DNA of 64,000 nucleotides, from positions 65,314-129,313 of the forward strand of contig MGPE01000006.1 in assembly GCA_001797335.1 (NCBI GenBank), in the 5' to 3' direction. Under the pieces are notes generated by a model. It saw nothing but the letters and a program-made list of their open reading frames with translations, searched no databases and was not told where the DNA came from. The stretch's first letter is position 1. Each line of letters opens with the position of its first letter. Source of the stretch: Deltaproteobacteria bacterium GWA2_38_16 (lineage in GTDB: Bacteria; Bdellovibrionota; JACOXK01; 2-02-FULL-40-11). This document shows, piece by piece, positions 4,745 through 18,550 of this stretch. The position numbers and the translations under genes are program-made.

Positions 4745-4778
4745 ATTTTTATATAGTGCACCACCTGAATTTCAAAAA

Positions 4779-7562
4779 TCAAGACTTTTTTGCTGGAATC
4801 GACGCTAACCCTCGCTTGGGAGAAGCATACATGGGCGCCAACGATAAGGCTTTATTGAACGCTTCTTTGGCCTTTGAGTAATCCTTTAATTTTAAATAAT
4901 TCCACCCCAAACCATCATAAGGATCAGCATAGATATCGTTAGAAGCATGTAGATCTACCAATTCTTGAAATGCCTGAATAGAGTTTTCATTCTGGCCACT
5001 AAAATAATAGCTCCAGGCCAATGCTGAAAGGACCACACTCTTTTTCCCCCAGATTTTTTCTGAGTCTTTGAGCTCACGAGCTACCTTGGAAAGCGTTTGA
5101 GAAGCCTTGGTATACGTTCCCATGTAATACTGAACGAGCCCCAGTCCCCGTTGAACTTCCACATCATCTGGATTATGCACCAAGGCCAAATTAAAATATT
5201 TTTCTGCTTCAAGATAATAGAAGGAATTTAGATACCCCCATCCAGAAATGGCAAATACATCACTCCAGTCTGTATGTTCTTCAAGCATCGCTTGATAATC
5301 TGGCAAGTTTGAAATGACAGAGGATAAGTTTACGGCTTTGAGCATTTGTTCATGGGCTTTTTCCGGTTGATTCAGTTTAAAATAGGTAAGGGCTAATCCT
5401 CCTTGAGCTTCTGGAAGTAGTGGATATTGCTCCATAAACTTTTTAAAATGTTTCAACGCTTGATCAAATTTACCCGCCCTAAAAGATGCCCAACTTAAAT
5501 ACCCTTGCCCTTCAGATGAAAGCGGGTATTGAGAAGAAAATTTTTCCAAATAAGGCACCGCTTCAGCATATTGACCTAAGATATAGTGAGCAAAGCCAAT
5601 ACCCCTTAATGTCATGGGGTCATTGGGCCTGACCGCTAATACTTTTTCTTTAAAGATGCTCAGTGCCTTTTGAGTTTGTCCCAAGGAATAATAACACCAC
5701 GCAATTCCAGCATGAGCTCTCCATTTTTCAGATTCTGGCAATTTATTTAAAACCGCCATAAACCGCCCTTGGGCTTTTTGAATATAGCCAATATTATACC
5801 AATACCAAGCTTCATTCACCTGAATAAAATTTTTATTAATTTTAGATAGCCCGAGCTGTGCTTCATAATGACCCGGTAAGAGAAGTAGACACTTATCAAA
5901 TTCATCTGCCGCTCGAGTAAAATCATTTTTACCAAAATACGCCCATCCTAGGCCATTCTTAGCATCGGCAAGAAGTGGATAGTCTTTGGCCAACGCTTCA
6001 AAATGAGTAATGGCATTTTGAAAATCTTTTTTCTTGTGATACGCCCACCCTAGCCCCCTCACAGCTTCCAAAGAATTATAAATTTTTCTGGACTCATTAA
6101 AAGCATTAATGGCTTCATTATATTGAGCTTTATTATAATGAGACCACCCCAAAGAATTTAAGGCTTCTACTTTTTCATCTTTGGTAATGGATTGCTGCAA
6201 AAACTCATTTAATAAAGAAATGGCTTGATCATTTTTAGCAAGCTGCCAGCTGGTATAGGCACGCCCTTTTAAATTAAATTTGTCATGCCCATTACCTGCC
6301 ATTTCAAAATGAGTCATCGCTTTTTTATAGTCTGCCTTATAATAAAATGCCCATCCAATATCGTTATTCACAGCTTTCCAATCTTTTTGTTCTGTTAACA
6401 TTTGTTTAAACAAAGGCCCATCCACATACCAAGGATAAAGATTGACCGCCCTCGCAAAACTTTCTTTCGCTTTTGTAAAATTTTTACCCTCATAGAAACA
6501 GAGAGTTAGTCCAAAATGCGCATCGGCTATCAAAGGATAATTTATGGTTAAAAAAGAAAATTCCTGAATGGCATTTTGATAGTCTTTTTTATTATAGTAA
6601 CTCCAAGCAATATTAATGATGGCATCCGTATCTCCTGGAACTTCTTCAAGATACCTTTTTAATTGAGTAATGGCTTTATCAAATTGCTTCATTTTAAATT
6701 CACAAAATGCCATCCCTTTACGAGCGTAGGCTGTATTGGCATTTTGATCCAAGGCACTCATGAAATTCTGCTTCGCTTTGGCAAAATCTCCAAGCCAATA
6801 CTGAGACCAAGCTAATCCTAAATGAACTCTCCACAGTTCCCCTTTAGGAACTCTTTTCGTTGTATTTTGTAAAATTGCATTAAATTGATTCACCGCCACT
6901 TTGTAACTTCCAATATTGAGCTGATACCAAGCCTTATAAATAGGCTCTAACGCCACATTTTGCGCTTGATAACTTTTAATAGCTCCAATGGTAGATAAGC
7001 CAATATCAGCCCCTGCATATTTGGGATCGTGCTTTTTAATTTCTTGAAATTCTTGTTTTGCTTGGGGCAATTTTCCCATCGCCACAAAGGCTAGCCCCAA
7101 TCCATGGCGAGAAGCCACCCAGTCGGGATGCTCTTTGGTCACTTCTTTTAAAGTTTTAATGGCATCATTATAGTAGCCTAAAAGATAATAGCTCCACCCT
7201 AAGAGAGATTTTCCATTTCCATCAACATCAAACTCTCCTTCTACACCAGGAAGGGTGATTTTTTCGTGAATGGTTTCAAAAGTTGGACTTATTTTTTGAG
7301 CCGCTTTAATGTGATAAACAGCATCCCAATAGCGACCTAATTTAAATTCTGCATAGGCCATCCCCACCAGGGCATCTGGGTTATTTTGGGGAGACTTTTT
7401 AAAGCTGGCCATAGCATCAACAAACTTTTTAGAATGATAATTTTCCCATCCTTGTTGAACCGCATTGTCTTTTTCAGCCCTGAGTGAAAATGATAAAAAA
7501 CTCACCACGATAACTACCCATAAGATTCGATATAATTTCATATTGCCTCCTTGTACCCACAC
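4779..7562 (-). CDS. Large secreted TPR-repeat protein (927 aa). The true start is probably the internal MKLYRIL.. Met.
   Basis: Signal peptide and >20 tandem TPR-like units (W/Y-rich, e.g. LGWAYFGKNDF.. and GLGWSYY..). Confidence 0.7.
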   Translation of the reverse strand: MWVQGGNMKLYRILWVVIVVSFLSFSLRAEKDNAVQQGWENYHSKKFVDAMASFKKSPQNNPDALVGMAYAEFKLGRYWDAVYHIKAAQKISPTFETIHEKITLPGVEGEFDVDGNGKSLLGWSYYLLGYYNDAIKTLKEVTKEHPDWVASRHGLGLAFVAMGKLPQAKQEFQEIKKHDPKYAGADIGLSTIGAIKSYQAQNVALEPIYKAWYQLNIGSYKVAVNQFNAILQNTTKRVPKGELWRVHLGLAWSQYWLGDFAKAKQNFMSALDQNANTAYARKGMAFCEFKMKQFDKAITQLKRYLEEVPGDTDAIINIAWSYYNKKDYQNAIQEFSFLTINYPLIADAHFGLTLCFYEGKNFTKAKESFARAVNLYPWYVDGPLFKQMLTEQKDWKAVNNDIGWAFYYKADYKKAMTHFEMAGNGHDKFNLKGRAYTSWQLAKNDQAISLLNEFLQQSITKDEKVEALNSLGWSHYNKAQYNEAINAFNESRKIYNSLEAVRGLGWAYHKKKDFQNAITHFEALAKDYPLLADAKNGLGWAYFGKNDFTRAADEFDKCLLLLPGHYEAQLGLSKINKNFIQVNEAWYWYNIGYIQKAQGRFMAVLNKLPESEKWRAHAGIAWCYYSLGQTQKALSIFKEKVLAVRPNDPMTLRGIGFAHYILGQYAEAVPYLEKFSSQYPLSSEGQGYLSWASFRAGKFDQALKHFKKFMEQYPLLPEAQGGLALTYFKLNQPEKAHEQMLKAVNLSSVISNLPDYQAMLEEHTDWSDVFAISGWGYLNSFYYLEAEKYFNLALVHNPDDVEVQRGLGLVQYYMGTYTKASQTLSKVARELKDSEKIWGKKSVVLSALAWSYYFSGQNENSIQAFQELVDLHASNDIYADPYDGLGWNYLKLKDYSKAKEAFNKALSLAPMYASPKRGLASIPAKKS

Positions 7563-7625
7563 TCATCGGATATATTTTTTGAAACTTTAGTAAAAACAGC
7601 CTAAAGATTATCGCCCATTTTCCGA

Positions 7626-7631
7626 TATAAT
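7626..7631 (+). promoter_or_regulatory. Putative -10 hexamer (TATAAT) upstream of the operon's first gene
   Basis: Perfect TATAAT 21 nt upstream of the ATG at 7653, with an A/G-rich RBS (aaagaaagga) in between. No convincing -35 was identified. Confidence 0.3.
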
Positions 7632-7652
7632 ACTTAAAGAAAGGATAAACCC

Positions 7653-8021
7653 ATGCCAAACATGAATGATCCCCAAAAAACTTCTTCTAGTCAGCAAGTA
7701 GAACGATACTTTGATCAATTTGCATTTTTAGATAGCAAACGCCATCTTTCCTTAGATATTCCTAAGCATCTTAAGATAGAGCTTTATAAAGAAGAAGGTG
7801 GTTTTATCTTTGATAGCAATAATGGCCTTATTTATACCATAAATCAGGTAGCCGCTTTTATCCTCTCTCTCATCATCCATAAAAAAGGACAATATGGATT
7901 AAATGATATTACCCAGTTTTTGAAAACCACTTTTGATGTCACTGATCAAGAAGCTCAAGATGATATTATTGAATTTTTTTGCCATTTAAAAGACTTTGGA
8001 ATGGAGGTCATCGCTGAATGA
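7653..8021 (+). CDS. PqqD-like / RiPP recognition element (RRE)-type small protein
   Basis: C-terminal ~90 aa fit the PqqD pattern from memory (..LIYTINQVAAFILSLI..G.YGLNDITQFLKTTFDVTDQEAQDDIIEFFCHLKDFGMEVI). Its stop overlaps the next start (ATGA). Confidence 0.5.
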   Translation: MPNMNDPQKTSSSQQVERYFDQFAFLDSKRHLSLDIPKHLKIELYKEEGGFIFDSNNGLIYTINQVAAFILSLIIHKKGQYGLNDITQFLKTTFDVTDQEAQDDIIEFFCHLKDFGMEVIAE

Positions 8022-9094
8022 ATCATCCTATTCACGTCGCTATTACAGGACTCCAAATGATGGACAATCCCTATCCCGGAGTTAGTGTTGCCCGAAGTCT
8101 TAAGGAAAGTCCCAGTTTTTCTGGAAAAATCATCGGCCTTTCGTATGATCTTCACTGTACAGGAAATTTCTCTCCCTATTTTGATGACATTTTTTTAACC
8201 CCTTTCCCCTGGGATTCAGAAACACAGTGGCTTAATAGAATTGCCCAAATTCATCAAAAAATTCGGCTCGATGTCATTATCCCAACCCTGGATTCTGAAA
8301 TAGCTCTTTTTTCTAAAATGTCTTTAACGTTAGAAAAAATGGGAATTAAAACATTCTTACCTTCTGAAATGTCTGTTAAAGCCCGAGCTAAAAATTTTTT
8401 ACCCGAATGGTGCAAAACTCATCAAATTATTAAAACCCCCAAAACCATGGTGGTAGTTAATAAAAGTGAAATCGCTAAAATTGTAGGTACCGTAGGATAT
8501 CCCTGCCTCATTAAAGGAGCTCTGGCCGATGCTTATATTGCTTATGATATCTATGAAGCCAGCGTTTTTTTTGACCGAATCTATTATGGCTGGGGACTAC
8601 CCGTCATTATTCAAGAATGTATTAAAGGAGATGATTTTGACGTTGTCGCTCTCGCTGGGAAAGATAGTACCCTCATTGGTGCTACCGCTATTAAAAAATT
8701 GGCCATTACCGATCAAGGAAAATGCGCCATTGCCAGTATTGTCAATGACGAACAATTATTTACCCTTACTCAAAAAATTGCTCACGCTTTAAAATGGGTA
8801 GGCCCGTTTGAAGTAGAAATGGTTTATGACGGCTTTAATAAAGAATTTTATTTGATTGAAATTAATGCACGGTTTCCCGCATGGATTTATTTAACAGCAA
8901 AAGCCAATTATAATTTACCTGAAAAACTAGTTCAGCTGGCCATGGGAGAAAATGTCTCTCCACTGCCTCCCTGTCAGAGTGAGCTTCTTTTTACACGCAC
9001 CAAAGAAGATTATTTTTTTGAAGTTAATGCCTATAGCAAACTGGCTGCAACAGGAGAACTAAAAAAAGGAGATCTTCTCTGTGAAAACTTATAA
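8018..9094 (+). CDS. ATP-grasp family ligase (paralog 1)
   Basis: ATP-grasp C-terminal metal-binding signature FYLIEINARFP (E-x-N), preceded by a Gly/Lys-rich nucleotide-binding region. Its start overlaps the upstream gene by 4 nt. Confidence 0.7.
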   Translation: MNHPIHVAITGLQMMDNPYPGVSVARSLKESPSFSGKIIGLSYDLHCTGNFSPYFDDIFLTPFPWDSETQWLNRIAQIHQKIRLDVIIPTLDSEIALFSKMSLTLEKMGIKTFLPSEMSVKARAKNFLPEWCKTHQIIKTPKTMVVVNKSEIAKIVGTVGYPCLIKGALADAYIAYDIYEASVFFDRIYYGWGLPVIIQECIKGDDFDVVALAGKDSTLIGATAIKKLAITDQGKCAIASIVNDEQLFTLTQKIAHALKWVGPFEVEMVYDGFNKEFYLIEINARFPAWIYLTAKANYNLPEKLVQLAMGENVSPLPPCQSELLFTRTKEDYFFEVNAYSKLAATGELKKGDLLCENL

Positions 9095-10154
9095 TATTGC
9101 CATTACTGGATTTCATGCTACCTGTGAACCCACTGCGGCACAACACATTGCCCATAGTCTTAAAACCTCTAGCCGATTTGGAAATTCTAAACTCATTGCT
9201 TTAAATTACGATATCAACTGCGGAGGAAATTTTAATCCAACCAGCATTGATGAAGTATATGTGCTTCCCTCTCCCTTCGATAACGAAGATCGCTTTTACC
9301 ACGCCCTGGTTAACATTCTTAAAAAAGCCAAAATTGATATTTTGATTCCAACGATGGATTTTGAACTTTCTTTATTCCCTCAATTTAAAGAACGCCTTTT
9401 AAAAGAGGGGGTAGATGTCATGATTGTCCTGCCTCAACAATATTATTTTCATAATAAACAAAAATTGTATCGCTTTTGCGAATCTCAAAAAATTCCTATG
9501 CCTTGGACAGTAGAAGTTATTAATCGCTATACCATTGATTATTATTCCCCCTATTTTATTTATCCACTTTTACTTAAAAACTCTAAGGGCCAAGAAATTT
9601 TTTGCTGCACATTAGAAGAGGTGTATGTTTTTTACCGTCGCCTTTTACGAGAACCCGCTAGCACCATTTATCTCCAAAACACTATCGGCGGTGAATTCTA
9701 CAGTGCATGTCTTTTGTTCGGAAAATCTTCAGAAATTTTAGGAAAAATTATTGTTAAAAGAATTCTTGTAGCTCCCAATGGAGAAACCTGGGGAGTATTA
9801 ACCGTCACCGCTCCCCCTTTACAAGCAGTTTTAGATAATCTTCTTTTTAAATTGGGGATTACCTATGAAGGGCCCCTTGAAATTAAATTTAAAAGAATTA
9901 TAGGTACCGATATTTTTTATATTACCGATCTTAAAACACAATTTCCAACGTGGGTGCATCTGGCCACCAAAGCAGGACAAAATCTTGTGGAAACATATCT
10001 AAAATTTATTTTGGGAGAATCTGTAGAAAAATTGGCTCCCTATCAACCCGGCATGATGCTTATTAAAAGCGCGTACGATCAGGTATCCCCCACAAATAAT
10101 TTAGGAAAACTCATTATGAAAGGAGAAATGACCTATGACAAAAAAGCAGCCTAG
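9081..10154 (+). CDS. ATP-grasp family ligase (paralog 2, divergent metal-binding motif)
   Basis: Collinear with paralog 1 along its full length (ITG..CTGNF.P..D(V/I)(I/L)IPT(L/M)D.E..LF..). The position equivalent to FYLIEINARFP reads FYITDLKTQFP, so the Asn of E-x-N is Lys. It overlaps its neighbours by 14 and 20 nt. Confidence 0.65.
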   Translation: MKTYNIAITGFHATCEPTAAQHIAHSLKTSSRFGNSKLIALNYDINCGGNFNPTSIDEVYVLPSPFDNEDRFYHALVNILKKAKIDILIPTMDFELSLFPQFKERLLKEGVDVMIVLPQQYYFHNKQKLYRFCESQKIPMPWTVEVINRYTIDYYSPYFIYPLLLKNSKGQEIFCCTLEEVYVFYRRLLREPASTIYLQNTIGGEFYSACLLFGKSSEILGKIIVKRILVAPNGETWGVLTVTAPPLQAVLDNLLFKLGITYEGPLEIKFKRIIGTDIFYITDLKTQFPTWVHLATKAGQNLVETYLKFILGESVEKLAPYQPGMMLIKSAYDQVSPTNNLGKLIMKGEMTYDKKAA

Positions 10155-11535
10155 TGATTTGCAAAAATATGAAAAACCTACCATTCAGCTTTTTTCTTTG
10201 CAAAATACAAGTCCTTATGAAGGGGTAAAATATAATGACGCTCTTCCCCAAGAAATTGATGGTGTTAATATTTTTACCATGCTTCAAAATTATGGGTCTC
10301 CTCTCTTTGTGATTTCTGAAAAAACATTACGAGAAAATTACAGATACATGGCTCAAACTTTTCAAAAACACTATGAAAAAACACACATCAGCTATTCCTA
10401 TAAAACCAATTATCTGTCTACGATTTGCGCTATTTTAAAAGAAGAAGGTGCCTGGTCAGAAGTTGTAAGCGGTATGGAATATGACATGGCCGAGCGACTG
10501 GGGGTTCCTGGAAATAATATCATTTTTAATGGCTGCTATAAAAAACCTCATGAACTTTTAAAAGCGGCGTTAGGAAATACGCTCATTAACATTGATTCTC
10601 ATGATGAAGCCATTCAATTAGAAAAAATTGCTTTAAAACTTAAAAAGAAAATTCCCGTTGGTATCCGAATTAATATGCGTCTTTCCAATATGCCCTGGAA
10701 TAAATTCGGTTTTAATTTGGAATCTGGCCAAGCCTATGAAATGTGTAAACGTATTTACACCTCTCAACTTCTAGAAGTACGTGGCATTCATGCTCATATT
10801 GGAACCTATATTGCAGATCCTTTTTTGTATACGCAAGCTACTCGAGCTCTCGTACGATTTGCCCAATTTATCGAAGAGCAATGCAATTTTAAAATTGAAT
10901 ATTTTGATTTAGGGGGAGGATTTCCTTCTCCCAATACCCTTCAGCAACAATTCCTACCTGCATCGTATCTCATCCCAAATATCGAAGAATATGCAAAAGC
11001 CATCTGTGGCCCTTTGAAAGAGTTCAAATCTCGTCATGGGATTAAACCAACGTTATTTTTGGAACCTGGACGAGCTCTTGTGGATAGCGCCATGACCTGT
11101 CTTACAACCGTGGTGGCCCATAAAACCATTGCTCAGAGTGTTCAAGGCATCATTATTGATACGGGAGTCAATATTCTTCCCACAGCCTATTGGTACGATC
11201 ATGATATTTCCTGCGCGACAAAGAGTGCGATGTCCAGACAAGACACTGTTATTTTTGGGCCTCTTTGCATGCAAATTGATGTGGTAAGAAAGTATATTAA
11301 ACTTCCTCCTCTTCAACGCGGAGATATTTTAATTATTAAAAATACGGGGGCTTATAACACTACTCAATCCATGCAGTTTATTTATACACGACCGGCCATC
11401 GTCCTTATTCATGACGGCCAAGTAGAAGTGGTTAAAAAAGCCGAAACCCTAGATGACATTCAACGCTTAGAAGAACTTCCCGAACGATTAAAAAACAATG
11501 TCATGCCGTTTCAAAAAGAGAAAAAAGCAGCCTAA
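10135..11535 (+). CDS. PLP-dependent decarboxylase, alanine-racemase fold (Orn/DAP/Arg decarboxylase family)
   Basis: YSYKTN (PLP-Lys), SEVVSGMEYDMA, FDLGGGFPS, EPGRALV, GAYNTTQSMQF: the canonical fold-III decarboxylase motifs. Confidence 0.8.
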   Translation: MTKKQPSDLQKYEKPTIQLFSLQNTSPYEGVKYNDALPQEIDGVNIFTMLQNYGSPLFVISEKTLRENYRYMAQTFQKHYEKTHISYSYKTNYLSTICAILKEEGAWSEVVSGMEYDMAERLGVPGNNIIFNGCYKKPHELLKAALGNTLINIDSHDEAIQLEKIALKLKKKIPVGIRINMRLSNMPWNKFGFNLESGQAYEMCKRIYTSQLLEVRGIHAHIGTYIADPFLYTQATRALVRFAQFIEEQCNFKIEYFDLGGGFPSPNTLQQQFLPASYLIPNIEEYAKAICGPLKEFKSRHGIKPTLFLEPGRALVDSAMTCLTTVVAHKTIAQSVQGIIIDTGVNILPTAYWYDHDISCATKSAMSRQDTVIFGPLCMQIDVVRKYIKLPPLQRGDILIIKNTGAYNTTQSMQFIYTRPAIVLIHDGQVEVVKKAETLDDIQRLEELPERLKNNVMPFQKEKKAA

Positions 11536-12621
11536 ATGAAACCAGATTTTTTAGATTTTAACCATTATGAACAATCTGTGTGGAGTAATCCTCTGATCCG
11601 CTTTATCGACACTATCCTAAGAGGGATGGCCCAAATGTTATTTTGCTACCACCCTATTTCTGGACTTTTATTTTTAATTGGAACTTTCGCCCTCTCTCCA
11701 GTAGCAGGAATGTATTCGCTACTAGGTCTCATGATAGCCACACTTACCGCTCGATTTTTAAAATGCAATCCTTACCTTATTAACATTGGTATTTATGGAT
11801 ATAATGCCGCTCTTTTAGGAATATATTGGATTTTTTTTGACACTTTTTCCATTTCTCTTCTTTTTTTATTTATCGGCATGTGTATTCTAACCGTTTTTTT
11901 AGAGCACTTCTTCTTAGTAAAAGTATCTTCTAGCCGATGGGGACTTCCGGCCATTAGTTTTCCCTCACTTTTTTCGATGTGGATAGGGGTTAGTCTTGCC
12001 TATCTTTTTAAACTCGTTCCCTATCCCATTTCTATTGATAGGTTAGAAGTCACCACCATTAATTTTTTTGCAAATCCAGATTATGAACTTTTAGGAACCT
12101 ACTTATGGGATCATCTGGGAGGAATTATTCTTATTGCCATGGGGATTCTTTATAATTCTAGAATTAGTTTTTTCTTTACAGCCATTTCTTTTACTCTAGC
12201 CACCGTCATTTCTCTTTTTTTAGGAGGGAATTCTTTACCTTACTGGAATGATATTTATTACAATTTAGTTCCTATGAGCATTGCTCTTGGAGGATTTTAT
12301 TTTGTGTTTAATAAACACATCATTTTTTATACTTTTTTAGCCATGATCCTAACTACCACTTTGTTTTACGGTATGCACAATTTCTTTCATTCCTTTGGAT
12401 TTCCTACCTTAATCTATCCTTTTAATATGGTTGTTTTTGCCGTATTGTGTGTTTTTGCCAAAGGAAGTTTATCCTTTGAAAAATTTTTTAATGCTTATCG
12501 AGTCCCTCTGATCGTATGTAAAAGACCCGAATCAATTCTTCAGTGGCACCAAGAACACATGGAGTCTTATCATTATTGGAATAACTTAAACTCCCAACAA
12601 AATAGAAAGGCGGCCGCATGA
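11536..12621 (+). CDS. Polytopic membrane protein resembling the urea-transporter (UT) family
   Basis: ~10 TM segments. ILRGMAQMLFCYHPISGLLFLIG and IGIYGYNAALLG resemble the UT signature blocks (LRG..Q..F..NP.SGL, GLYGYN..LVG). It starts immediately after the decarboxylase stop. Confidence 0.5.
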   Translation: MKPDFLDFNHYEQSVWSNPLIRFIDTILRGMAQMLFCYHPISGLLFLIGTFALSPVAGMYSLLGLMIATLTARFLKCNPYLINIGIYGYNAALLGIYWIFFDTFSISLLFLFIGMCILTVFLEHFFLVKVSSSRWGLPAISFPSLFSMWIGVSLAYLFKLVPYPISIDRLEVTTINFFANPDYELLGTYLWDHLGGIILIAMGILYNSRISFFFTAISFTLATVISLFLGGNSLPYWNDIYYNLVPMSIALGGFYFVFNKHIIFYTFLAMILTTTLFYGMHNFFHSFGFPTLIYPFNMVVFAVLCVFAKGSLSFEKFFNAYRVPLIVCKRPESILQWHQEHMESYHYWNNLNSQQNRKAAA

Positions 12622-13430
12622 ATAATGATACTTTAAATACCATTATAAATCTTATATTAAAATCACAAAACATTGTTTTTCTCACGGGCTCTGGAGTAAG
12701 CACGACTTCGGGCATCCCTGATTACCGAGGGAAAACCAGTGCTTATTGGAAAAAATATGAGGGCAATGAATATAACTATCAAAATTTTTTAAGAAGTGAA
12801 AATTCCAGACAAAAATATTGGGAAATGAGCGCAGATTTTTTTAATATGATTCAAAAAGCAACCCCTTCAATAGCTCACAAGGCTCTGGCCGAGCTTGAAA
12901 AATGTGGTGCTTTGCAATCTATCATCACTCAAAATGTCGATGGCTTACATCAAAAAGCAGGAAATCTTCCTGCCAATATTTTAGAAATTCATGGAACCAT
13001 TCATCATGTTATTTGTTTGGATTGTTCCACCGTCTATCAGAGTAAAGACATCTATGGAAGAATTCAAAAAGGGATTAAGGTTCCCTACTGTGATTATTGT
13101 CGAGGAATCTTAAAACCAGCGGTCATTGATTTTGGACAACCGCTTCCAAAAGCCCAAATGGCAAAAGCGTTAAAAAGAACTCTAGACTGTGACCTTTTTA
13201 TTGCTGTTGGATCTTCTCTCATTATTCAACCGGCTGCCACCCTTCCCATTATTGCAAAAGAACACCAAAAAACCGTGGTTATTATCAATGACATGTCCAC
13301 GGTCTGTGACCAATATGCCAATCACATTATCCATGGCGAATGCGGTGATATTTTATCTAAGATGGTAAGTGAATTAAAACAAAAACGTCCCGTTCAAGAA
13401 CCTTCTTTTGTCTATAGTCAAACTGGCTGA
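12618..13430 (+). CDS. Sir2-family NAD-dependent protein deacylase (sirtuin, CobB-like)
   Basis: GSGVSTTSGIPDYRG, TQNVDGLHQKAG, catalytic His in EIHGT, zinc ribbon CLDC..CDYC. 4-nt ATGA overlap with the upstream gene. Confidence 0.8.
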   Translation: MNNDTLNTIINLILKSQNIVFLTGSGVSTTSGIPDYRGKTSAYWKKYEGNEYNYQNFLRSENSRQKYWEMSADFFNMIQKATPSIAHKALAELEKCGALQSIITQNVDGLHQKAGNLPANILEIHGTIHHVICLDCSTVYQSKDIYGRIQKGIKVPYCDYCRGILKPAVIDFGQPLPKAQMAKALKRTLDCDLFIAVGSSLIIQPAATLPIIAKEHQKTVVIINDMSTVCDQYANHIIHGECGDILSKMVSELKQKRPVQEPSFVYSQTG

Positions 13431-14521
13431 TGACCTCTCATCGACATATCTCTCTTGATGCCTTACGGGGTCTAGTCGTCGTTTTGATGGCCTTGGATCA
13501 CGTTCAATTTTTTTGGTTTTCTTTTGGACTCCCTAACGATGGCCTTCATGGACTTATTCCCCAATATCTGTCTTCTTTTCATCAACTAACTCGATTTTTA
13601 AGTCATCTCTGTGCTCCTACTTTTCTTTTTTTAGCAGGCATGATGGTTGCTTGGAAAAAAGATCCAAAACATATTTTTATTCGAGGGATAATCCTCATTT
13701 TCTTGCAATTTACATTGGAAAATATTGCCTGGTGGCCCAAAGGATATATTGAAAACAAAGGATATGCATATTTTGGAATTCTTTCATGCTTAGGGGTTGG
13801 CATGTGCATGTTGGCGCTTTTGTCTTCTGTAAGGCCCCTATTTATATTTATCATAAGCATATTCATTTTCTTCCTCTCCCAGGCCATAGTAAATCCAATG
13901 GTTCCTAATGCCCATCCCTTCTTACAGGGATTGGCCATCATTTTCTATGTACCCACATTAGAGAAATTTTATCCTATGACATCCTTATTTACGGTTATCC
14001 CCTGGGTGGGATTTATGGGCATTGGATATTATATAGGCACAAAAACATTAAACCATCCTTTATACCTTTATAAAAAAACATTTGGGATCGTGGGGCTTAT
14101 ACTTATTATCACCTCTAGCGTACTTCGTTATATGAATGGTTTTGGAAACACCCTTCACTGGTATGGAAGTCCTTTTGGATCAGATTTTTTTATTCTCTCC
14201 AAGTACCCACCCAGTCTTGTATTTAGTGGATTTATCCTGGGAATAATGTTTTTAATTTGGGCCCTTTTTATACACACTGAATCAAAATTCAGCCGATGGA
14301 ACCCTCTCGTTGTTTTTGGACAGGTGGCCTTATTCTTTTATCTCGTACATCTCTATCTTTATGGATTAGGGGCTTACATCGTAGGGCACACTGTGGGGCT
14401 TACTCATCTCTCACACATCTGGGGTATTTGGTTTTTGGGACTTATCCCTCTTTATTTTCTCTGTGCTTTCTATAGAAATCTAAAAACTACTTCTCCAACT
14501 ACTTGGATAAGGTATATATAA
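13430..14521 (+). CDS. DUF1624 / acyltransferase-3-like integral membrane protein (HGSNAT-like)
   Basis: N-terminus HISLDALRGLVVVLMALDHV matches the DUF1624 start motif. ~9 TM helices. Its start overlaps the sirtuin stop by 1 nt. Confidence 0.5.
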   Translation: MTSHRHISLDALRGLVVVLMALDHVQFFWFSFGLPNDGLHGLIPQYLSSFHQLTRFLSHLCAPTFLFLAGMMVAWKKDPKHIFIRGIILIFLQFTLENIAWWPKGYIENKGYAYFGILSCLGVGMCMLALLSSVRPLFIFIISIFIFFLSQAIVNPMVPNAHPFLQGLAIIFYVPTLEKFYPMTSLFTVIPWVGFMGIGYYIGTKTLNHPLYLYKKTFGIVGLILIITSSVLRYMNGFGNTLHWYGSPFGSDFFILSKYPPSLVFSGFILGIMFLIWALFIHTESKFSRWNPLVVFGQVALFFYLVHLYLYGLGAYIVGHTVGLTHLSHIWGIWFLGLIPLYFLCAFYRNLKTTSPTTWIRYI

Positions 14522-15347: not shown

Positions 15348-15390
15348 ATCTTAATATTTTACTTTGTCTCTTATCTTTAATTTTATAAGC

Positions 15391-16758
15391 CTATCCCCAA
15401 AATGTCAAAATCACTCCCTTTAAACATAAAAAAATTAAAAGAAGTGAAAGAAAAGATATCCCATACTTGAGAGCCCGGGTAAAAACAGTAGGTTTATCCG
15501 TATAGTCAGAAATCACATAGTGCATATCGAGTTCTAAGAGAGGATTTAAATTAATTAACCCAATCACGTAGGAACACAGCGCCACTATCCAACAATTTAC
15601 ACAACCAGTTATCCCTCCTATCCATGCAAAAACGGCTGAAAACACAAAGTGGCTATAAGGACCTGAGAGAGACACCACCATTCTGGGCCATTTGGGTAAA
15701 AGCCACATATCTGATGTATCGACAAACACCATGGGACTTATCCAATGCCACCCAAACCCCATGCCATACACTTTTCGACCATAGCTTTTGGTTGCAAAAG
15801 CATGCGCCATCTCGTGGATCAAAAATGAAAGCAGCACTCCCCCAAAAACGATGGGAAGGGAAAAAGACGCATTTTCTTTTAGAAGATCCATCATAGATTT
15901 CCAGCGCAGAATAAATATCCCTATCCCACTGATTGAAAACAAGGTTAAGACCACAAACGCTTTCGTCGTAAAAAAAATCTTAAAACCAGAATTATAAATT
16001 TTAGTGAGTATAGGGTCCACATTTTTAAAAATAACCGTTGCCGTAAGACATCTTTTAATCCCTAGCATTATTTTTTGAAGCCAGCTCATTCGAAAAGCAA
16101 TGGCTGTTACATCTTTTTTTAAAAACCGCTTCTTTAAAAAACCTTTCGCTTCTAGCCCAGCGATAACATCGGCAATTTGATGGGGGGCAAAGGTCTTAAA
16201 TTTAGCCAGATATTCTAAAGTTAAATCTTTCAAATGATGTTTTCCGTCTAAAAGTTGCCAAATAAACCATCCTTCAGAAGACAGTCGATAGTAGGCCTGT
16301 GTCAGGGGATTTTTTAAAATCGTCATCGTACGTCCCTCTTCTAGATATTGCTCTACATCGACATTGGAGAGTCTCTTGGGGCGACTTCTTAGAGTGAGTA
16401 ATTCGATAATCTGACTTGAAATTGTGTTATCAAAACCCAATAATTCTAATAACTCTTTGCGCTTTAAAATAATAACGGTGGATTTTTCCACTGTTTTTAC
16501 AGAGGCATTCCGAGGGGCACCGGTTAAGAGAGCCGCTTCTCCAAACACACTTCCGGGACCGAGCGTTGCCAATACTCTATCGTTTGAAACTTCGCGAAGG
16601 ATAACTTCAACACTTCCACTTAAAAGAACATAGCACACATCTCCCCGCTCATTTTGCCGGATAATTTCAATATGGGCAGGAAATGTTTTTTGTTCAAGTC
16701 GCTCTAAAAAAGAGTGAGAGGCCTGCTTTAAAATCTCAGGAAGAGGAGAAAGAATCAC
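15391..16758 (-). CDS. Cyclic-nucleotide-binding domain fused to an M50 (site-2 protease) intramembrane zinc metalloprotease
   Basis: N-terminal cNMP-binding fold (..GDVCYVLLSGSVEV..GPGSVFGEAALLTG.PRNASV). Then TM segments carrying HEMAHAF (HExxH) and NLNPLLELD (M50 N-x2-P-x4-D motif). GTG start overlaps the upstream small ORF stop (GTGA). Confidence 0.7.
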   Translation of the reverse strand: MILSPLPEILKQASHSFLERLEQKTFPAHIEIIRQNERGDVCYVLLSGSVEVILREVSNDRVLATLGPGSVFGEAALLTGAPRNASVKTVEKSTVIILKRKELLELLGFDNTISSQIIELLTLRSRPKRLSNVDVEQYLEEGRTMTILKNPLTQAYYRLSSEGWFIWQLLDGKHHLKDLTLEYLAKFKTFAPHQIADVIAGLEAKGFLKKRFLKKDVTAIAFRMSWLQKIMLGIKRCLTATVIFKNVDPILTKIYNSGFKIFFTTKAFVVLTLFSISGIGIFILRWKSMMDLLKENASFSLPIVFGGVLLSFLIHEMAHAFATKSYGRKVYGMGFGWHWISPMVFVDTSDMWLLPKWPRMVVSLSGPYSHFVFSAVFAWIGGITGCVNCWIVALCSYVIGLINLNPLLELDMHYVISDYTDKPTVFTRALKYGISFLSLLLIFLCLKGVILTFWG

Positions 16759-16955
16759 GCGCCTTTATTAATACGTGATTTTAACTCTTCATCGGATAAG
16801 GACCAATCAACGTGATTTAATAAATCCATTTCTTCTTTGGTAAGCCGAATGCCGCTCGTTTGAACAGCACTCTTTGGATCTTTTCGAATCAGCTCTCTAA
16901 ATTTTTTGTCATTAATCCATTTATCAATCAATTTCCCCACTTCTTGCATACCCAT
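16755..16955 (-). CDS. 66-aa NHLP/Nif11-like leader-type peptide without a core (copy 1)
   Basis: ..KLIDKWINDKKFRELIRKDPKSAVQTSGIRL..LSDEELKSRINKGA matches the nitrile-hydratase-leader-peptide pattern (LI.KAW.D..F..EL..NPK.A....G..L......LSDEEL...) but terminates where the GG/core would start. Good RBS (aaaggag). Confidence 0.5.
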   Translation of the reverse strand: MGMQEVGKLIDKWINDKKFRELIRKDPKSAVQTSGIRLTKEEMDLLNHVDWSLSDEELKSRINKGA

Positions 16956-16976
16956 ATGTTTTCTCCTTTTGTTGTC

Positions 16977-17119: not shown

Positions 17120-18481
17120 CTAAATATTTTTGAGAATTTCTCTCCATCGAAAAATCAAATAAAACGGAATAGAAAGAAGTCGATATTGTAACTTTGTGCC
17201 GGTTGGCAACGTTACCAGATGACTTTCAACTTTAAGCGCCGCTTGGTTATAAAAACGAACTCCAATAGTGTAAGAGCTCCTTGAAAGAAATTGGTGAAGC
17301 GATTTAAGCGAACCATGGCTACCTGATTTAACCTCGATGGGAATAAGTTCATTTTCAAAGGGAACCAAAAAATCAAGCTCTGAAGAACTCCCCTTTTCTT
17401 CACGAATCCAAAAAAATAATGTATTACGATTATAAAAATCACATGCCAATAATTCCTGCCCCACAAATGTTTCTAATAATCCCCCTTGATAAAAGGGATC
17501 AATAAGCTGCGCATGAATTTGCTTTTGAGCTATATGAAGAGATTCTGTACAAAGTCCTACATCAAGAAAAATTGCTTTTGGTGCTGCTTTTGGTTTTCTA
17601 ACCAGCGGAGGTTGTGTTTGTGTAGTTGGAAAAATTCTTTCTACAAGCATGGCCTCATGCAAAATATCAAATGCTCTTGAAATCTCTTTTGAACGAACTT
17701 CAGATCCTGCTAGTTTTGAATATGTAATCCTTTTCCCAATTTCAAAGGGAACTCGATCCCAAACCAATTTCAGGTGCTCAGTCTCTGCCCCCTTCGAATA
17801 TTTTGCGAAATCTTCTTTAAATGAGGAGACCAATATTTCATGGCATTGTTTCACAGTAATAAAACTTCCATTTTTTATATATTCATTGACAGCCTCCGGC
17901 ATCCCACCCACAACCATATAATCCGAAAGTAAGCCTACAAGCTTATCATGCACAGGTCGGGGCAAGGAGCTTCCAATCTTAAGCTCCATTAATGATTGAA
18001 GAAGAATCTCTTCACCATTCACTAATAAAAACTCGTCAAAAGTAAGTGGGTATAAATAAAGAAACTCTACTCTTCCCACAGGAAAGGACCAACCTTCACT
18101 TCTCATACGCACTTCCAAAAGTGAACCAGCACCAATCACATGAAGATTGGGTAATTCTTCATAAAAATAACGCAGTAATTTTATGGCAACTTCAGAATTT
18201 TGGATCTCATCCAGGAAGAGAAGGGTTTTTTTCGGAATAACCCTCTTATTTGAAACTCCTTCAATGCTTTTGACAACTTCTTTTATATCTTGAACCTCAG
18301 AAAATATTTTTCGGTTGGCGTCCTTTTCTAGATTTAACTCAATAAAATTTTCAAATTGACGCCCAAGATTTCTGACCAGTGTTGTCTTGCCTGTTTGTCT
18401 AGCCCCACGGAAGATAAGAGGTTTTCGAATTTCTTTGTTTTTCCACTTTTGTAGTTCTTGATCAGATTTTCTTACAAACAT
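17120..18481 (-). CDS. AAA+ ATPase of the DUF4143/COG1373 family
   Basis: Walker A FRGARQTGKTT, Walker B LLFLDEIQ, C-terminal DUF4143-like region. Confidence 0.7.
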   Translation of the reverse strand: MFVRKSDQELQKWKNKEIRKPLIFRGARQTGKTTLVRNLGRQFENFIELNLEKDANRKIFSEVQDIKEVVKSIEGVSNKRVIPKKTLLFLDEIQNSEVAIKLLRYFYEELPNLHVIGAGSLLEVRMRSEGWSFPVGRVEFLYLYPLTFDEFLLVNGEEILLQSLMELKIGSSLPRPVHDKLVGLLSDYMVVGGMPEAVNEYIKNGSFITVKQCHEILVSSFKEDFAKYSKGAETEHLKLVWDRVPFEIGKRITYSKLAGSEVRSKEISRAFDILHEAMLVERIFPTTQTQPPLVRKPKAAPKAIFLDVGLCTESLHIAQKQIHAQLIDPFYQGGLLETFVGQELLACDFYNRNTLFFWIREEKGSSSELDFLVPFENELIPIEVKSGSHGSLKSLHQFLSRSSYTIGVRFYNQAALKVESHLVTLPTGTKLQYRLLSIPFYLIFRWREILKNI

Positions 18482-18550
18482 AAGTAAATTATATCTAAAG
18501 AATAGGTTCTTTACAACATAAAAATATATAAAGAATAGGTTCTTTTAAGC

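Follow-up and report, generated by a model that had tools for sequence, protein, structure and literature searches.

The window, which is the whole stretch of 64,000 nucleotides analysed, carries a block of seven genes on the plus strand and a divergent operon of three genes beside it (Table 1). All seven open reading frames were found at the coordinates given by an earlier note on this DNA, its seven domain calls were all backed by Pfam or NCBIfam evidence, and the junctions proved to be as claimed, namely a 4-nt ATGA overlap, overlaps of 14 and 20 nt, one abutting pair, a second 4-nt ATGA overlap and a 1-nt overlap. In L005, a 67%-identical relative, the junctions AG1/AG2 (14 nt), AG2/decarboxylase (20 nt), decarboxylase/UT (abutting) and UT/SIR2 (4 nt) are kept. 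An AGGA ribosome-binding site precedes the ATG at 7653, a TATAAT-like box lies near 7624, and an Rfam search of the intergenic region gave no matches. Inside the operon, neither promoter-like sites (17 versus 27 expected from shuffles) nor terminator-like sites (10 versus a shuffle expectation of 6.2 ± 2.3) were in clear excess. The gene overlaps, together with a conserved order and fusions elsewhere, bear out the view that the block is a single co-transcribed, functionally linked unit. As a coupled block the seven genes are real, but the unit is larger than had been claimed: on sequence grounds we assign to the system the divergent TPR/outer-membrane-barrel/TPR operon (2538-7562) as well.

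Table 1 Features of the locus and its surroundings
Feature	Position	Strand	Remarks
HisRS	1236-2489		boundary of divergent operon
Small secreted TPR protein, 211 aa	2538-3173	-	TPR Pfam matches; last gene of divergent operon
Putative outer-membrane beta-barrel, 527 aa, AlgE-like	3161-4744	-	homology to L001 531-aa protein
Large secreted TPR protein, 927 aa	4779-7562	-	many TPR Pfam matches; divergent from PqqD
Divergent intergenic (promoter) region	7563-7652		90 bp separating both operons
PqqD-family (RRE-type) small protein, 122 aa	7653-8021	+	Pfam PqqD 33.5 bits
ATP-grasp ligase AG1, L-amino-acid ligase/PylC-like	8018-9094	+	
AG2, ATP-grasp paralogue, probably non-catalytic	9081-10154	+	28% identity to AG1
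PLP-dependent alanine-racemase-fold decarboxylase, FslC/FigC-like	10135-11535	+	Orn_Arg_deC_N and C-terminal domain
UT-fold inner-membrane channel, 361 aa, non-canonical filter	11536-12621	+	Pfam UT 131.8 bits
Sirtuin (NAD-dependent deacylase)	12618-13430	+	Pfam SIR2 148.6 bits; translational coupling to UT
HGSNAT/DUF1624-type transmembrane acetyltransferase	13430-14521	+	Pfam HGSNAT_cat 52 bits
66-aa peptides	16755-16955 and 18617-18817		NCBIfam NF038399 53 and 51 bits

The core of the system, consisting of a PqqD-like protein, an ATP-grasp enzyme, the decarboxylase, a UT-fold channel and secreted TPR proteins, was found in at least 600 species from at least eight phyla. Among 84 AG1 loci, the decarboxylase follows AG1 in 82, a PqqD orthologue of 80-88 aa lies directly 5' of the ATP-grasp gene in 76, UT is present in 70 (fused to an M23 peptidase in 62) and a small TPR gene in about 54-55. 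The UT-M23 fusion is the commoner form, with M23 at the position where the rarer form has SIR2. The window belongs to the rarer variant, which has a second ATP-grasp and a sirtuin and recurs in Rokubacteria and Planctomycetota. This SIR2-type set (TPR, PqqD, AG1, AG2, decarboxylase, UT and SIR2, with or without an acetyltransferase) was seen in L001, in the Planctomycetota loci L047 and L091, and in the Rokubacteria locus L090, to which L089 is nearly identical. Fusions of the UT-SIR2 or UT-SIR2-GNAT type in Rokubacteria and Planctomycetota mirror the order UT, SIR2, acetyltransferase of the window. The gene content described earlier is thus widespread in its core, whereas the sirtuin, HGSNAT and AG2 are confined to one variant.

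The 527-aa barrel candidate of the divergent operon has no Pfam match of its own, but aligns over its full length with the 531-aa protein of L001 (29% identity, E 3e-42), which matches Pfam Alginate_exp with 26.3 bits (cutoff 25.2); it has a hydrophobic N-terminus and a C-terminal end of KWTF. The N-terminus of the 927-aa TPR protein is signal-peptide-like, and homologues of it lie directly upstream of PqqD and co-directional with it in L001 (28% identity, 321 bits), L015 and L045. Large TPR genes, recognised by Pfam, are found at this place in L089, L090 and L091 too, and L047 has matches to the 927-aa protein both ahead of PqqD and in the interval from AG1 to AG2. The 211-aa TPR protein falls into one blastp cluster of 55 loci, a single-linkage cluster that includes large TPR proteins (family 4), with a TPR gene of about 208 aa that follows UT-M23 in Bacteroidota. 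Wherever their start is clear, the TPR partners have a signal peptide. Barrel-like proteins were found in the Bacteroidota, Cloacimonadota, Ignavibacteria/Lentisphaeria/Marinimicrobia and window/L001 forms, and searching the Rokubacteria and Planctomycetota loci revealed no barrel gene.

The first gene was confirmed as a member of the PqqD family, its profile score exceeding the Pfam cutoff of 23.4 bits, and its product has an N-terminal extension of roughly 40 aa. The family conserves no Lys, Cys, Ser or terminal residue to which a group could be attached. The RRE-type PqqD fold binds peptides in characterised systems. The earlier observation that no precursor open reading frame lies inside the operon now extends to more than 80 loci, very short frames included, none of which co-encodes a precursor peptide.

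The two ATP-grasp proteins differ in the state of their motifs. AG1 matches Pfam ATPgrasp_Ter, CPSase_L_D2 and ATP-grasp_3, and stays below every NCBIfam cutoff for carbamoyl-phosphate synthase (CPS) and biotin carboxylase (BC) families. Its nearest characterised structural neighbours, at only 13-15% sequence identity, are L-amino-acid ligases (BacD, RizA and BL00235) and PylC. AG2 is related to AG1 with E 5e-48 and is supported by NCBIfam PRK12767; a Pfam PylC-like_N signal is present in AG2 and in AG1 homologues. Where AG1 has the invariant E281-x-N283-x-R285, AG2 carries D/K/Q, with the further changes E267K, K235E and G167N. AG2 occurs only in the SIR2-type variant, and in its counterparts in L001, L005, L047, L089, L090 and L091 the same motif is also degenerate. 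By its motif and its structural neighbours, AG1 is predicted to be a catalytically intact small-molecule ligase of the L-amino-acid ligase/PylC type, and AG2 a degenerate paralogue that is probably non-catalytic. The claim that both ATP-grasps are ligases is therefore not upheld, since AG2 and its counterparts lack the canonical motif. AG1 was also considered as a RiPP macrocyclase or graspetide cyclase and rejected, its structural neighbours being L-amino-acid ligases and PylC instead.

The closest solved structure to the decarboxylase is FslC (7kh2, E 2.6e-67, versus 2.2e-44 for LysA), and its NCBIfam scores for FslC (259) and lysA (244) are each under their own cutoff. We compared it using the substrate determinants that separate LysA from FigC (PMC7857480). 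At the position of the DAP-binding Arg of LysA, 72 of 73 family members have Thr or Ser, and in all 73 'Cys-Glu' has become 'Cys-Met', so that the catalytic Cys is no longer followed by an acidic residue; FigC shares both replacements. The PLP Lys is invariant and the family conserves pocket motifs of its own. An assignment as LysA was rejected because both DAP-binding determinants are lost, the lysA cutoff is not reached and the FslC structure is closer. The citrate ligands H357 and R387 of FigC are replaced by Ile and Gln in the window enzyme, suggesting that the acyl partner is not citrate. The characterised members of the FigC clade, FigC, SbnH, AcsE, MccE and BtrK, all decarboxylate side-chain-tethered amino-acid moieties (PMC7857480). 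Together with the closest structure and the FigC-like determinants, this leads us to propose that the window enzyme would act on a tethered substrate.

The UT protein is similar to dvUT (3k3f, E 6.7e-26), with an NCBIfam urea_trans_yut score of 111, under the cutoff of 274.6. The cytoplasmic half of its urea recognition motif (as defined in PMC11589576) is largely kept and the periplasmic half is degenerate, which makes the class of solute less certain. Both termini of UT proteins are intracellular (PMC11589576), no hydrophobic segment lies between UT and M23 in the fusions, and NAD- and acetyl-CoA-dependent domains (SIR2 and GNAT) are fused to UT at the place that M23 takes elsewhere; the M23 domain, whose catalytic residues (H, D, H and HxH) show conservation of 90% or more across 56 sequences, is accordingly predicted to be cytoplasmic, and cytoplasmic amide cleavage is proposed for the same reasons. 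The sirtuin retains GSGVS, QNVD, the catalytic His and a CxxC...CxxC Zn ribbon, and its CobB-type NCBIfam score of 243 bits is below the cutoff of 320. UT-SIR2 exists as one open reading frame in L047 and in at least 50 protein clusters. The acetyltransferase, with about 10 hydrophobic segments, scores well above the Pfam HGSNAT_cat cutoff of 22 bits, and an orthologue was found only in L005. In other lineages a GNAT acetyltransferase, non-homologous to HGSNAT, is fused after UT-SIR2, which supports a role for acetyltransferases in the system. Alternatively, SIR2 and GNAT could form a regulatory lysine-acetylation pair; sirtuins normally deacylate lysines on proteins.

The earlier note could name no pathway for this gene content, and we agree: neither the ATP-grasps nor the decarboxylase scored above the cutoff of any curated family, and targeted literature searches found no published description of such a system. 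The logic of ligase and then decarboxylase is shared with Francisella rhizoferrin synthesis, in which FslA/FigA (an NIS synthetase) is paired with FslC/FigC (an N-citrylornithine decarboxylase) and a side-chain-conjugated amino acid is alpha-decarboxylated to an N-acyl diamine, with no free diamine. The window differs in that its ligase is an ATP-grasp and not an IucA/IucC NIS synthetase, the MFS exporter and siderophore receptor are missing, and nothing in the rhizoferrin pathway corresponds to PqqD, UT, SIR2/M23 or the TPR proteins. Butirosin synthesis (BtrI, ACP; BtrJ, ATP-grasp; BtrK, PLP decarboxylase; BtrG, deprotecting) likewise pairs an ATP-grasp with a DAP-decarboxylase-like enzyme on a tethered residue, and BtrK is a detectable homologue of the window decarboxylase (E 1.6e-21). 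A later amide-cleaving step of that pathway takes off the protecting or tethering group. However, the window has no acyl carrier protein, its sole small protein being PqqD-like without a conserved attachment residue, and no aminoglycoside context, while btr has no channel-fused hydrolases or envelope proteins. Pearlins (PEARL enzymes) and LysW/AmCP with LysX are built on a carrier, modified and released by a peptidase, a concept that matches the peptide-scaffolded synthesis raised in the earlier note; LysX and ArgX are ATP-grasp enzymes working on a small carrier protein. Graspetides of the microviridin type (MdnB/MdnC, CdnC and PsnB) resemble the locus in having ATP-grasps beside RiPP-like elements, with a 'Frankia_peptide'/NHLP-type precursor near. 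Unlike PylC and L-amino-acid ligase loci, the window has no pylB, pylD or dipeptide-antibiotic genes, and a PqqD partner is unprecedented for such ligases. The channel shares fold and family with urea transporters (UT/SLC14; dvUT, Yut), but has a degenerate periplasmic half-site, C-terminal M23, SIR2 or SIR2-GNAT fusions across its family, and no urease or urea-carboxylase context.

The analysis shows which genes are present, how they are conserved and fused, what state their motifs are in and which structures lie nearest. The chemistry, the substrates and the way in which transport runs are all inferred in the following tentative model, to which we give somewhat less than an even chance: the seven genes and the divergent operon form one variant of an envelope-spanning system that probably produces a small amine or amide compound and sets it free. 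AG1 would join a carboxylate to an amine, giving a Lys, Orn or Glu-like residue tethered via its side chain with the alpha-amino-acid end free, and the FigC-like decarboxylase would strip the alpha-carboxylate to leave a terminal primary amine. An amide-cleaving enzyme at the cytoplasmic C-terminus of UT, the sirtuin in the window and M23 in most lineages, would process or release the conjugate, and in the sirtuin variant an acetyltransferase (HGSNAT in the window, GNAT elsewhere) may cap or uncap the amine. The small product would then leave through the UT pore across the inner membrane, to be taken over in the periplasm and outer membrane by the secreted TPR proteins and the outer-membrane beta-barrel. 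The PqqD-like protein would partner AG1, presumably either as a non-canonical adaptor or by presenting part of a peptide or protein whose gene lies elsewhere. The general logic of ligation, decarboxylation, acyl/deacyl tailoring and export put forward earlier fits the FigC-clade decarboxylase and the UT-SIR2(-GNAT) fusions. Several points argue against the model: a PqqD/RRE domain normally implies a peptide and none is co-encoded; a cycle of ligation, decarboxylation and cleavage would be futile unless the conjugate is the product or more steps exist; a narrow UT pore has no obvious need for large periplasmic TPR proteins and a dedicated barrel; and no barrel gene was found in Rokubacteria and Planctomycetota loci. 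Such TPR proteins and barrels are usually met in systems that export polymers or assemble the envelope.

A rather unlikely alternative is that a peptide or protein encoded elsewhere is modified and is itself the end product. PqqD would dock its tail, AG1 would link the side chain of an amino acid to a carboxylate or a lysine of this target, and decarboxylation would give an aminoalkyl amide; SIR2 or M23 would be erasers, SIR2 and the acetyltransferase may regulate, and UT and the TPR proteins would have a linked but separate envelope role. RiPP precursors far from their maturase genes are known, the solid and conserved PqqD-family membership and the usual action of sirtuins on protein lysines favour this reading, and the FigC-clade MccE tailors a ribosomal peptide-nucleotide (PMC7857480). 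We consider very unlikely the narrower proposal of a classical RiPP cluster, in which the nearby 66-aa peptides would have their Asp/Glu/Ser/Lys-rich C-terminal core modified or cyclised by the ATP-grasps and an M50 protease would remove their NHLP-like leader. These peptides are bona fide RiPP-type precursors (NF038399 cutoff 40; weaker Pfam Frankia_peptide matches), only 2.2 kb from the operon, and Frankia_peptide was defined from ATP-grasp-linked peptides (PMC8939145). However, they form a module of their own, an Os1348/NHLP peptide with a cNMP-PqqD-M50 protease that brings its own PqqD domain, and in three other lineages this pair lies beside polyprenyl synthase and ABC exporters without any ATP-grasp. 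No AG1 locus (0 of 84) has such a peptide or M50 gene, and the related contig L085 has the module with the same HisRS, S41 and ComEC neighbours and no ATP-grasp system in the 17 kb fetched. Furthermore, AG1 is not of the graspetide type and AG2 lacks catalytic residues. The peptides, suggested earlier as substrates of the operon, thus belong to an independent module, each occurring elsewhere without the other.

Uptake or salvage appears improbable: an amide or N-acylated amine would enter by the barrel and UT, be trapped by SIR2/M23 deacylation, and then pass to AG1 for renewed conjugation and to the decarboxylase. In favour of it, urea-like amides can cross UT channels in either direction, the cytoplasmic urea half-site is the conserved one, and 18 loci of Bacteroidota have an upstream regulator of the AraC type, which is common in utilisation loci. 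Against it, ATP-dependent ligases and FigC-type decarboxylases belong to biosynthesis and not to catabolism, no downstream catabolic enzymes are conserved, and large secreted TPR proteins are atypical for small-solute uptake. Similarly doubtful is a peptidoglycan-related modification, in which the LysA-derived decarboxylase and the Ddl/Lal-like ATP-grasp would act on a stem-peptide diamino acid or supply a diamine to the periplasm, and the TPR proteins and barrel would use the product to tether or remodel outer membrane and peptidoglycan. Against this reading stand the predicted cytoplasmic location of M23, the absence of Mur, Fem and Ldt genes from the conserved neighbourhood, and PqqD, whose role it does not explain. 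Database labels favour a primary-metabolism operon (LysA, a CPS-like enzyme, a urea transporter and CobB) or chance juxtaposition, since homologues are annotated as 'carbamoyl-phosphate synthase large subunit', 'biotin carboxylase' and 'urea transporter', and FslC-type decarboxylases have been annotated in GenBank as diaminopimelate decarboxylase. The failed LysA determinants and lysA cutoff, and the AG1 scores below all CPS/BC cutoffs, make this explanation extremely improbable; it is effectively refuted by the conservation data, the gene order being kept across phyla and backed by fusions, and the genes of the window overlap.

PylC acylates the epsilon-amine of lysine to N-epsilon-acyl-lysine. 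A product of this type is just the kind of substrate on which both a FigC-like decarboxylase and a sirtuin could act. The system is widespread in bacteria, yet apparently undescribed.

Seven plus-strand open reading frames (ORFs) were found in the window where an earlier note had placed them, with the overlaps and abutments described there; the ATGA at 12618 was seen by direct reading of the sequence, and the remaining junctions were derived from the ORF coordinates. All seven domain assignments made at that time were borne out by Pfam or NCBIfam or, for the second ATP-grasp (AG2), by its paralogy to the first (AG1), and the first gene is a member of the PqqD/RRE family. In NCBIfam, PqqD, AG1, AG2, the decarboxylase, the urea-transporter-fold channel (UT) and the sirtuin (SIR2) all stayed below the model cutoffs, and the acyltransferase (HGSNAT) matched no model. 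Four junctions (14-nt, 20-nt, abutting and 4-nt) are shared with a 67%-identical relative (L005; L numbers denote comparison loci from other genomes). A ribosome-binding site and a -10-like box lie upstream of the ATG at 7653, and promoter-like and terminator-like sites inside the operon were not clearly above shuffle expectation. The 3' end of HGSNAT overlaps that of a convergent gene by 23 nt; the 282-aa product of this neighbour is lipoprotein-like, has a linker rich in Gly and Ser, and matched no family.

Features of the window and of comparison loci, with supporting matches
Feature	Locus	Coordinates	Strand	Match or remark
HisRS	window	1236-2489		boundary of the system
TPR211	window	2538-3173	-	groups with small TPR family
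527-aa protein	window	3161-4744	-	full-length homologue (E 3e-42) of Alginate_exp-positive barrel of L001
TPR927	window	4779-7562	-	signal peptide
Seven-gene operon	window	7653-14521	+	the seven genes below
PqqD	window		+	Pfam PqqD 33.5 bits (cutoff 23.4); Polaribacter orthologue 41.4 bits
AG1	window		+	ATPgrasp_Ter, CPSase_L_D2, ATP-grasp_3
AG2	window		+	AG1 paralogue, 28% identity, E 5e-48
Decarboxylase	window		+	alanine-racemase-fold PLP enzyme
UT	window		+	UT-family membrane protein, Pfam UT 131.8 bits; Polaribacter 174 bits
SIR2	window		+	sirtuin, Pfam SIR2 148.6 bits
HGSNAT	window		+	HGSNAT/DUF1624 acyltransferase, 52 bits
HGSNAT/convergent gene overlap	window	14499-14521		23 nt
Peptide/M50 module	window	15391-16955	-	also in L085-L088
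M50 3' end and copy	window	15381-15410; 18543-18572		30 nt, 90%
Duplication	window	16707-16956; 18569-18818		250 nt, 85% identity
66-aa peptides	window	16755-16955; 18617-18817		NCBIfam NF038399
AAA_14/DUF4143 ATPase	window	17120-18481	-	PADLOC candidate defence family PDC-S01, 507 bits
Genes just 5' of PqqD	L007	7479-9724		Ignavibacteria, Lentisphaeria and Marinimicrobia (this and next two rows; others exist)
	L008	7552-9740		
	L040	8885-9721		
AraC-family regulator	L060	9114-9704		directly 5' of PqqD
UT-M23 with C-terminal domain	L041	12408-14618		61 other loci
UT-SIR2(-GNAT) fusion ORFs	L047	15939-17777		proteins P0247, P0256, P0391-P0437 (all fusion rows)
	L089 and L090	9001-11148		
	L091	8750-10588		
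Spurious TPR-PqqD fusion	L047	8248-9978		Arg/Pro-rich frame
Spurious long PqqD ORF	L063	8941-9969		Arg/Pro-rich frame

A profile scan with AG1 across one genome per species gave at least 600 confirmed matches, from which 80 loci were kept and examined over 10 kb on either side; the counts that follow were taken across 84 loci. The kept loci belong to Bacteroidota, Ignavibacteriota, Cloacimonadota, Marinimicrobia, Fibrobacterota, Lentisphaeria, Planctomycetota and Myxococcota, and their carriers include a cultured Polaribacter and metagenome-assembled genomes assigned to Paludibacter, Ignavibacterium and Melioribacter. In 82 of the 84 loci the gene after AG1 is the decarboxylase, and in 76 a PqqD protein of 80-88 aa stands directly 5' of AG1. 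UT comes after the decarboxylase in 70, with a C-terminal M23 peptidase domain in 62 of these, and a small TPR protein with a signal peptide comes next in 54-55 of the 84. This neighbourhood comparison demonstrates that the gene set recurs as a unit in related genomes and is not a chance block. On the three points by which the earlier note was prepared to be judged, the first gene belongs with PqqD, the block is found again in other genomes, and neither ATP-grasp is a PurK, PurT or Ddl.

In 18 Bacteroidota loci an AraC-family regulator lies directly 5' of PqqD; in L089 and L090 a sigma-54 response regulator and an alpha/beta hydrolase are found downstream in its place. HisRS, S41 peptidase and ComEC genes, all shared with the window, adjoin each other in L085, with a protease (M50) module nearby, so that this locus is syntenic with window 1236-22333. 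In the window, the ATP-grasp/TPR system of ~12 kb separates HisRS from the M50 module, an arrangement that suggests gain or loss of the system as a block. Two apparent extensions of PqqD, a TPR fusion in L047 and a long ORF in L063, were rejected, as translation revealed spurious high-GC frames; the true PqqD of both loci is ~88 aa, and the genuine fusion of L047 is UT-SIR2. Where GC content is high, such frames can pass for N-terminally extended or fused PqqD, and mechanical ORF lists call for caution.

Judged from sequence, the system is larger than seven genes and takes in the divergent operon at 2538-7562, which encodes a large TPR protein (TPR927), a 527-aa barrel and a small TPR protein (TPR211). 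Homologues of TPR927 are co-directional with PqqD and lie just 5' of it in L001, L015 and L045, the stop codon in L001 overlapping the PqqD start, and the same place is taken by large secreted TPR genes in L089, L090 and L091. The barrel is AlgE-like and about 530 aa long in the window and L001. Bacteroidota have a TPR-plus-barrel protein of 428 aa, Cloacimonadota have an outer-membrane-barrel-like protein of 417 aa, and Ignavibacteria, Lentisphaeria and Marinimicrobia have barrel-like proteins of 261-284 aa with aromatic residues at the end. In loci of the last three groups, the genes just 5' of PqqD are of three types, encoding an FG-GAP/FlgD-Ig protein with a T9SS C-terminal sorting domain, a small outer-membrane-barrel-like protein, or a secreted Cys-rich protein of 142-149 aa with the motif KVDKVDCTLDYCYWCK; the Cys-rich protein is also repeated inside a 493-aa protein of one Planctomycetota locus.

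The window represents a rarer form of the system, the SIR2 type, in which AG2 and an in-operon sirtuin are present, as they are in L001, L005 and L047. In L047, from Planctomycetia, UT and SIR2 constitute a single uninterrupted ORF. When the window UT was searched against 1.8 billion representatives and the matches were scanned with Pfam, UT-SIR2, UT-M23 and UT-SIR2-GNAT fusions recurred, and a word-indexed search yielded at least 16 clusters of UT-SIR2-GNAT (including Rokubacteria) and at least 35 of UT-SIR2, those with a named source being mostly from Planctomycetota. The Candidatus Rokubacteria locus L090 encodes a secreted TPR protein (906), PqqD, AG1, an AG2-like protein, the decarboxylase and UT-SIR2-GNAT, an order found also in the near-identical metagenome contig L089, and L091 has the order TPR, PqqD, AG1, TPR, AG2-like, decarboxylase, UT-SIR2. 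PqqD, AG1, the AG2-like gene and the decarboxylase were all present in every UT-SIR2(-GNAT) context examined. Since the order UT, SIR2, HGSNAT of the window occurs elsewhere as one polypeptide, with a non-homologous acetyltransferase, this Rosetta-stone evidence suggests that genes 5-7 cooperate.

Both ATP-grasps are indeed ATP-grasp paralogues, but the description of the pair as two ligases does not extend to AG2, which lacks the E-x-N-x-R motif: it has D/K/Q at the positions of the invariant E281-x-N283-x-R285 of AG1. Its counterparts in six other loci are degenerate there too, with E/K/R, D/N/H and R/I/R at the three positions, or 'TGLTPG' or 'TRCIPR' for the 'VEVNPR' of AG1. AG2 is probably a non-catalytic partner. 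The invariant positions of the PqqD alignment are all structural Gly, Phe or Asn, and there is no conserved Ser, Cys or other nucleophile and no conserved terminal residue, which argues against a carrier role; PqqD was accordingly rejected as a LysW- or ACP-like carrier.

The best solved relative of the decarboxylase is the N-citrylornithine decarboxylase FslC/FigC (7kh2, E 2.6e-67; PDB), ahead of LysA (2.2e-44) and BtrK (1.6e-21). Specificity for diaminopimelate (DAP) is determined by an Arg to which the distal DAP carboxylate binds (R343 in the M. jannaschii DAP decarboxylase) and an acidic residue beside the catalytic Cys, FigC having Met355, and all characterised members among FigC, SbnH, AcsE, MccE and BtrK decarboxylate an amino-acid moiety attached by its side chain to something larger (PMC7857480). 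In our family, the DAP Arg position is Thr in 67 of 73 members and Ser in 5, 'CE' is replaced by 'CM' in all 73, and the PLP Lys is invariant. The FigC-type pocket is shared, with CM, T..WY and GAY conserved (Met after the catalytic Cys, DAP Arg gone, Tyr383), and the FigC citrate ligands His357 and Arg387 are replaced by Ile and Gln (over 80% of the family in either case) within strongly conserved motifs (GPLCM[NQ]ID and GAYNxTQWxQF). NCBIfam scores were below cutoff both for lysA (243.7 against 297.9) and for FslC (259 against 500). Because both the DAP determinants and the citrate ligands are replaced, the enzyme is neither LysA nor a citryl-ornithine decarboxylase, but a distinct member of the FigC clade.

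The urea recognition motif consists of Q-V/Y/T in Pa/3a/5a and Q-V/F/T in Pb/3b/5b (PMC11589576). Mapped on 62 UT sequences of the system, its cytoplasmic half-site is kept (Q in 44/58 and 4/4, F/Y in 52/58, Thr replaced by Ser in 55/58) and its periplasmic half-site is lost, with Q/E replaced by A/L/S and T(5b) by S/V/A, or by I/G in the SIR2 type. The catalytic H, D, H and HxH residues of M23 are at least 90% conserved in 56 UT-M23 fusions, and no hydrophobic segment was found between the last UT helix and M23. Since both UT termini are intracellular (PMC11589576), and other lineages have NAD- and acetyl-CoA-dependent domains at this place, this lack of an intervening segment points to a cytoplasmic M23 domain, a predicted site that is unusual for M23. 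The cytoplasmic end of UT carries, with M23, an uncharacterised conserved C-terminal domain of ~230 aa in L041 and 61 other loci. In the window sirtuin, the NAD motifs, the catalytic His and the Zn ribbon are readable (GSGVS...GIPDYRG, QNVDGLH, EIHG, CLDC...CDYC), and it scores under the CobB equivalog cutoffs of NCBIfam (243 against 320; 225.7 against 243).

The earlier note had seen no precursor ORF in the operon, and none is conserved across loci either. When 16,112 ORFs of 18-110 aa, taken from every locus, were clustered all against all, only PqqD and alternative-frame shadows of large genes emerged, and no ATG-started ORF of 8-70 aa in the 450 nt 5' of PqqD was conserved, the gap often being just 9-30 nt. 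A PqqA- or MftA-type short precursor at this site was rejected; the 'MMDYSSVQYL...' peptides that recur there represent the C-terminus of an AraC regulator encoded upstream. Rfam at the gathering threshold gave no riboswitch or RNA leader in the window and seven representative loci.

The candidate substrates that the earlier note had offered, two 66-aa peptides, turned out to belong to a separate Os1348/NHLP plus M50 module. Both pass NCBIfam NF038399 ('Os1348 family NHLP clan protein') and adjoin a cNMP-binding/PqqD/M50 protease. In three other lineages the peptide/M50 pair is preceded by a polyprenyl synthase (~345 aa), with a MacB/FtsX-type ABC exporter nearby in two, and never occurs with an ATP-grasp. 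L085 has the M50 module with HisRS, S41 and ComEC, but the 17 kb fetched there contain no ATP-grasp system, and an NHLP-type peptide or M50 gene is absent from all 84 AG1 loci. Since the module occurs in other lineages without an ATP-grasp and is missing from the AG1 loci, the peptides are unlikely to be substrates of the operon. The module may represent a RiPP type not described before, possibly prenylated; its window copy has no prenyl synthase and a short protease (455 aa, against about 680 aa typically). The 250-nt duplication comprises the peptide gene and the first ~50 nt of M50, and a copy of the M50 3' end abuts it, so that what comes after the second peptide gene is an M50 remnant with an internal deletion. 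An AAA_14/DUF4143 ATPase lies between the peptide copies.

The judgement that the operon matches no nameable pathway stands: the system lacks a defining feature of each family compared, and no NCBIfam cutoff is reached. Closest in working are the FigA/FigC pair and the BtrJ/BtrK module, where ligation of an amino acid is followed by decarboxylation of the tethered residue, and LysW and pearlin scaffolding share a conceptual likeness. Unlike FigC/FslC, however, the decarboxylase lacks the citrate-binding residues, and no IucA/IucC synthetase or siderophore transporter or receptor of an NIS siderophore pathway was found among window ORFs of at least 110 aa (1236-23833) or the scanned conserved neighbours. 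In contrast to butirosin BtrI/J/K, there is no PP-binding/ACP domain here, PqqD being the sole small conserved protein; nor is there a small carrier with a conserved C-terminal Glu plus a LysX-type ATP-grasp, as in LysW/AmCP systems, or, in the operon or conserved neighbours, a LanB-like PEARL enzyme or scaffold peptide, as in pearlin pathways. The system also lacks the MdnC/RimK-type ATP-grasp macrocyclase that graspetides require. A full-text literature search for this gene combination, outside the 2009 Iyer/Aravind amidoligase paper, where a brief mention is possible, found no description. On these grounds we rate the system-level architecture as new, with a chemistry that is proposed from sequence.

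As a general model, we tentatively favour a cytoplasm-to-envelope pathway, plausible though short of probable. AG1, which is PylC/Lal-like, would form a side-chain-linked amino-acid conjugate, the FigC-like enzyme would decarboxylate it to a terminal amine, and an amide-cleaving module at the cytoplasmic mouth of UT (SIR2 here, M23 elsewhere) would process or release the compound. In the SIR2 type, an acetyltransferase would cap or uncap the amine; the product would then leave through the UT pore, and the secreted TPR proteins and outer-membrane barrel would act beyond it. We infer that PylC-type chemistry could give an N-epsilon-acyl-lysine, the kind of substrate that a FigC-like decarboxylase and a sirtuin could recognise. 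Against this model, a plain cycle of ligation, decarboxylation and cleavage looks futile, and a small-solute channel has no evident need of large TPR proteins and a barrel. A scaffold-assisted small-molecule pathway of a new kind, with a cleave-and-export step, is possible, if rather doubtful. Here the PqqD adaptor would hold a carboxylate or lysine of a peptide or protein encoded elsewhere, to which the PylC/Lal-like ATP-grasp would tether an amino acid for conversion by the FigC-like decarboxylase; the UT-fused hydrolase (M23 in most phyla, the sirtuin with or without acetyltransferase here) would free the product straight into the pore, and the secreted TPR proteins and barrel would complete a trans-envelope route.

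The PqqD/RRE domain is shared with RRE-dependent RiPP clusters, but the co-encoded precursor of these is missing. That the system modifies a remote peptide or protein is unlikely. Uptake or salvage through UT is improbable, and we give as little weight to a peptidoglycan-linked role, the M23 domain being predicted to be cytoplasmic. Action on the adjacent 66-aa peptides, with their own module, is less probable still, and chance juxtaposition can be practically discounted, given the recurrence of the gene set. Primary metabolism (LysA, CPS or a canonical urea transporter) was rejected on motif and cutoff tests. A defence system was rejected on PADLOC, which gave no match for six of the seven genes and only weak generic SIR2 matches of at most 25 bits.

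If the proposal is true, the operon would belong to a widespread, unnoticed natural-product or envelope-metabolite pathway of at least 600 species, with the first PqqD/RRE protein paired with a small-molecule-type ATP-grasp and no co-encoded peptide. UT-fold channels would gain a new role as dedicated outlets of a biosynthetic pathway, on which cytoplasmic M23 peptidases and sirtuins would be interchangeable release or processing modules, and FigC-type decarboxylases would gain a new substrate class. The scaffold reading, if true, would add an ATP-grasp counterpart of pearlin or LysW logic and would show UT channels, cytoplasmic M23 domains and sirtuins taking part in the release of a metabolite, a use of them not known before. 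The routine annotations 'diaminopimelate decarboxylase', 'carbamoyl-phosphate synthase large subunit' and 'urea transporter' are corrected for these genes. Whatever the mechanism, the fusions of UT to SIR2-GNAT and to M23, together with the strictly kept gene order, provide testable handles on an unknown function common to the FCB group, Planctomycetota, Rokubacteria, Myxococcota and relatives.
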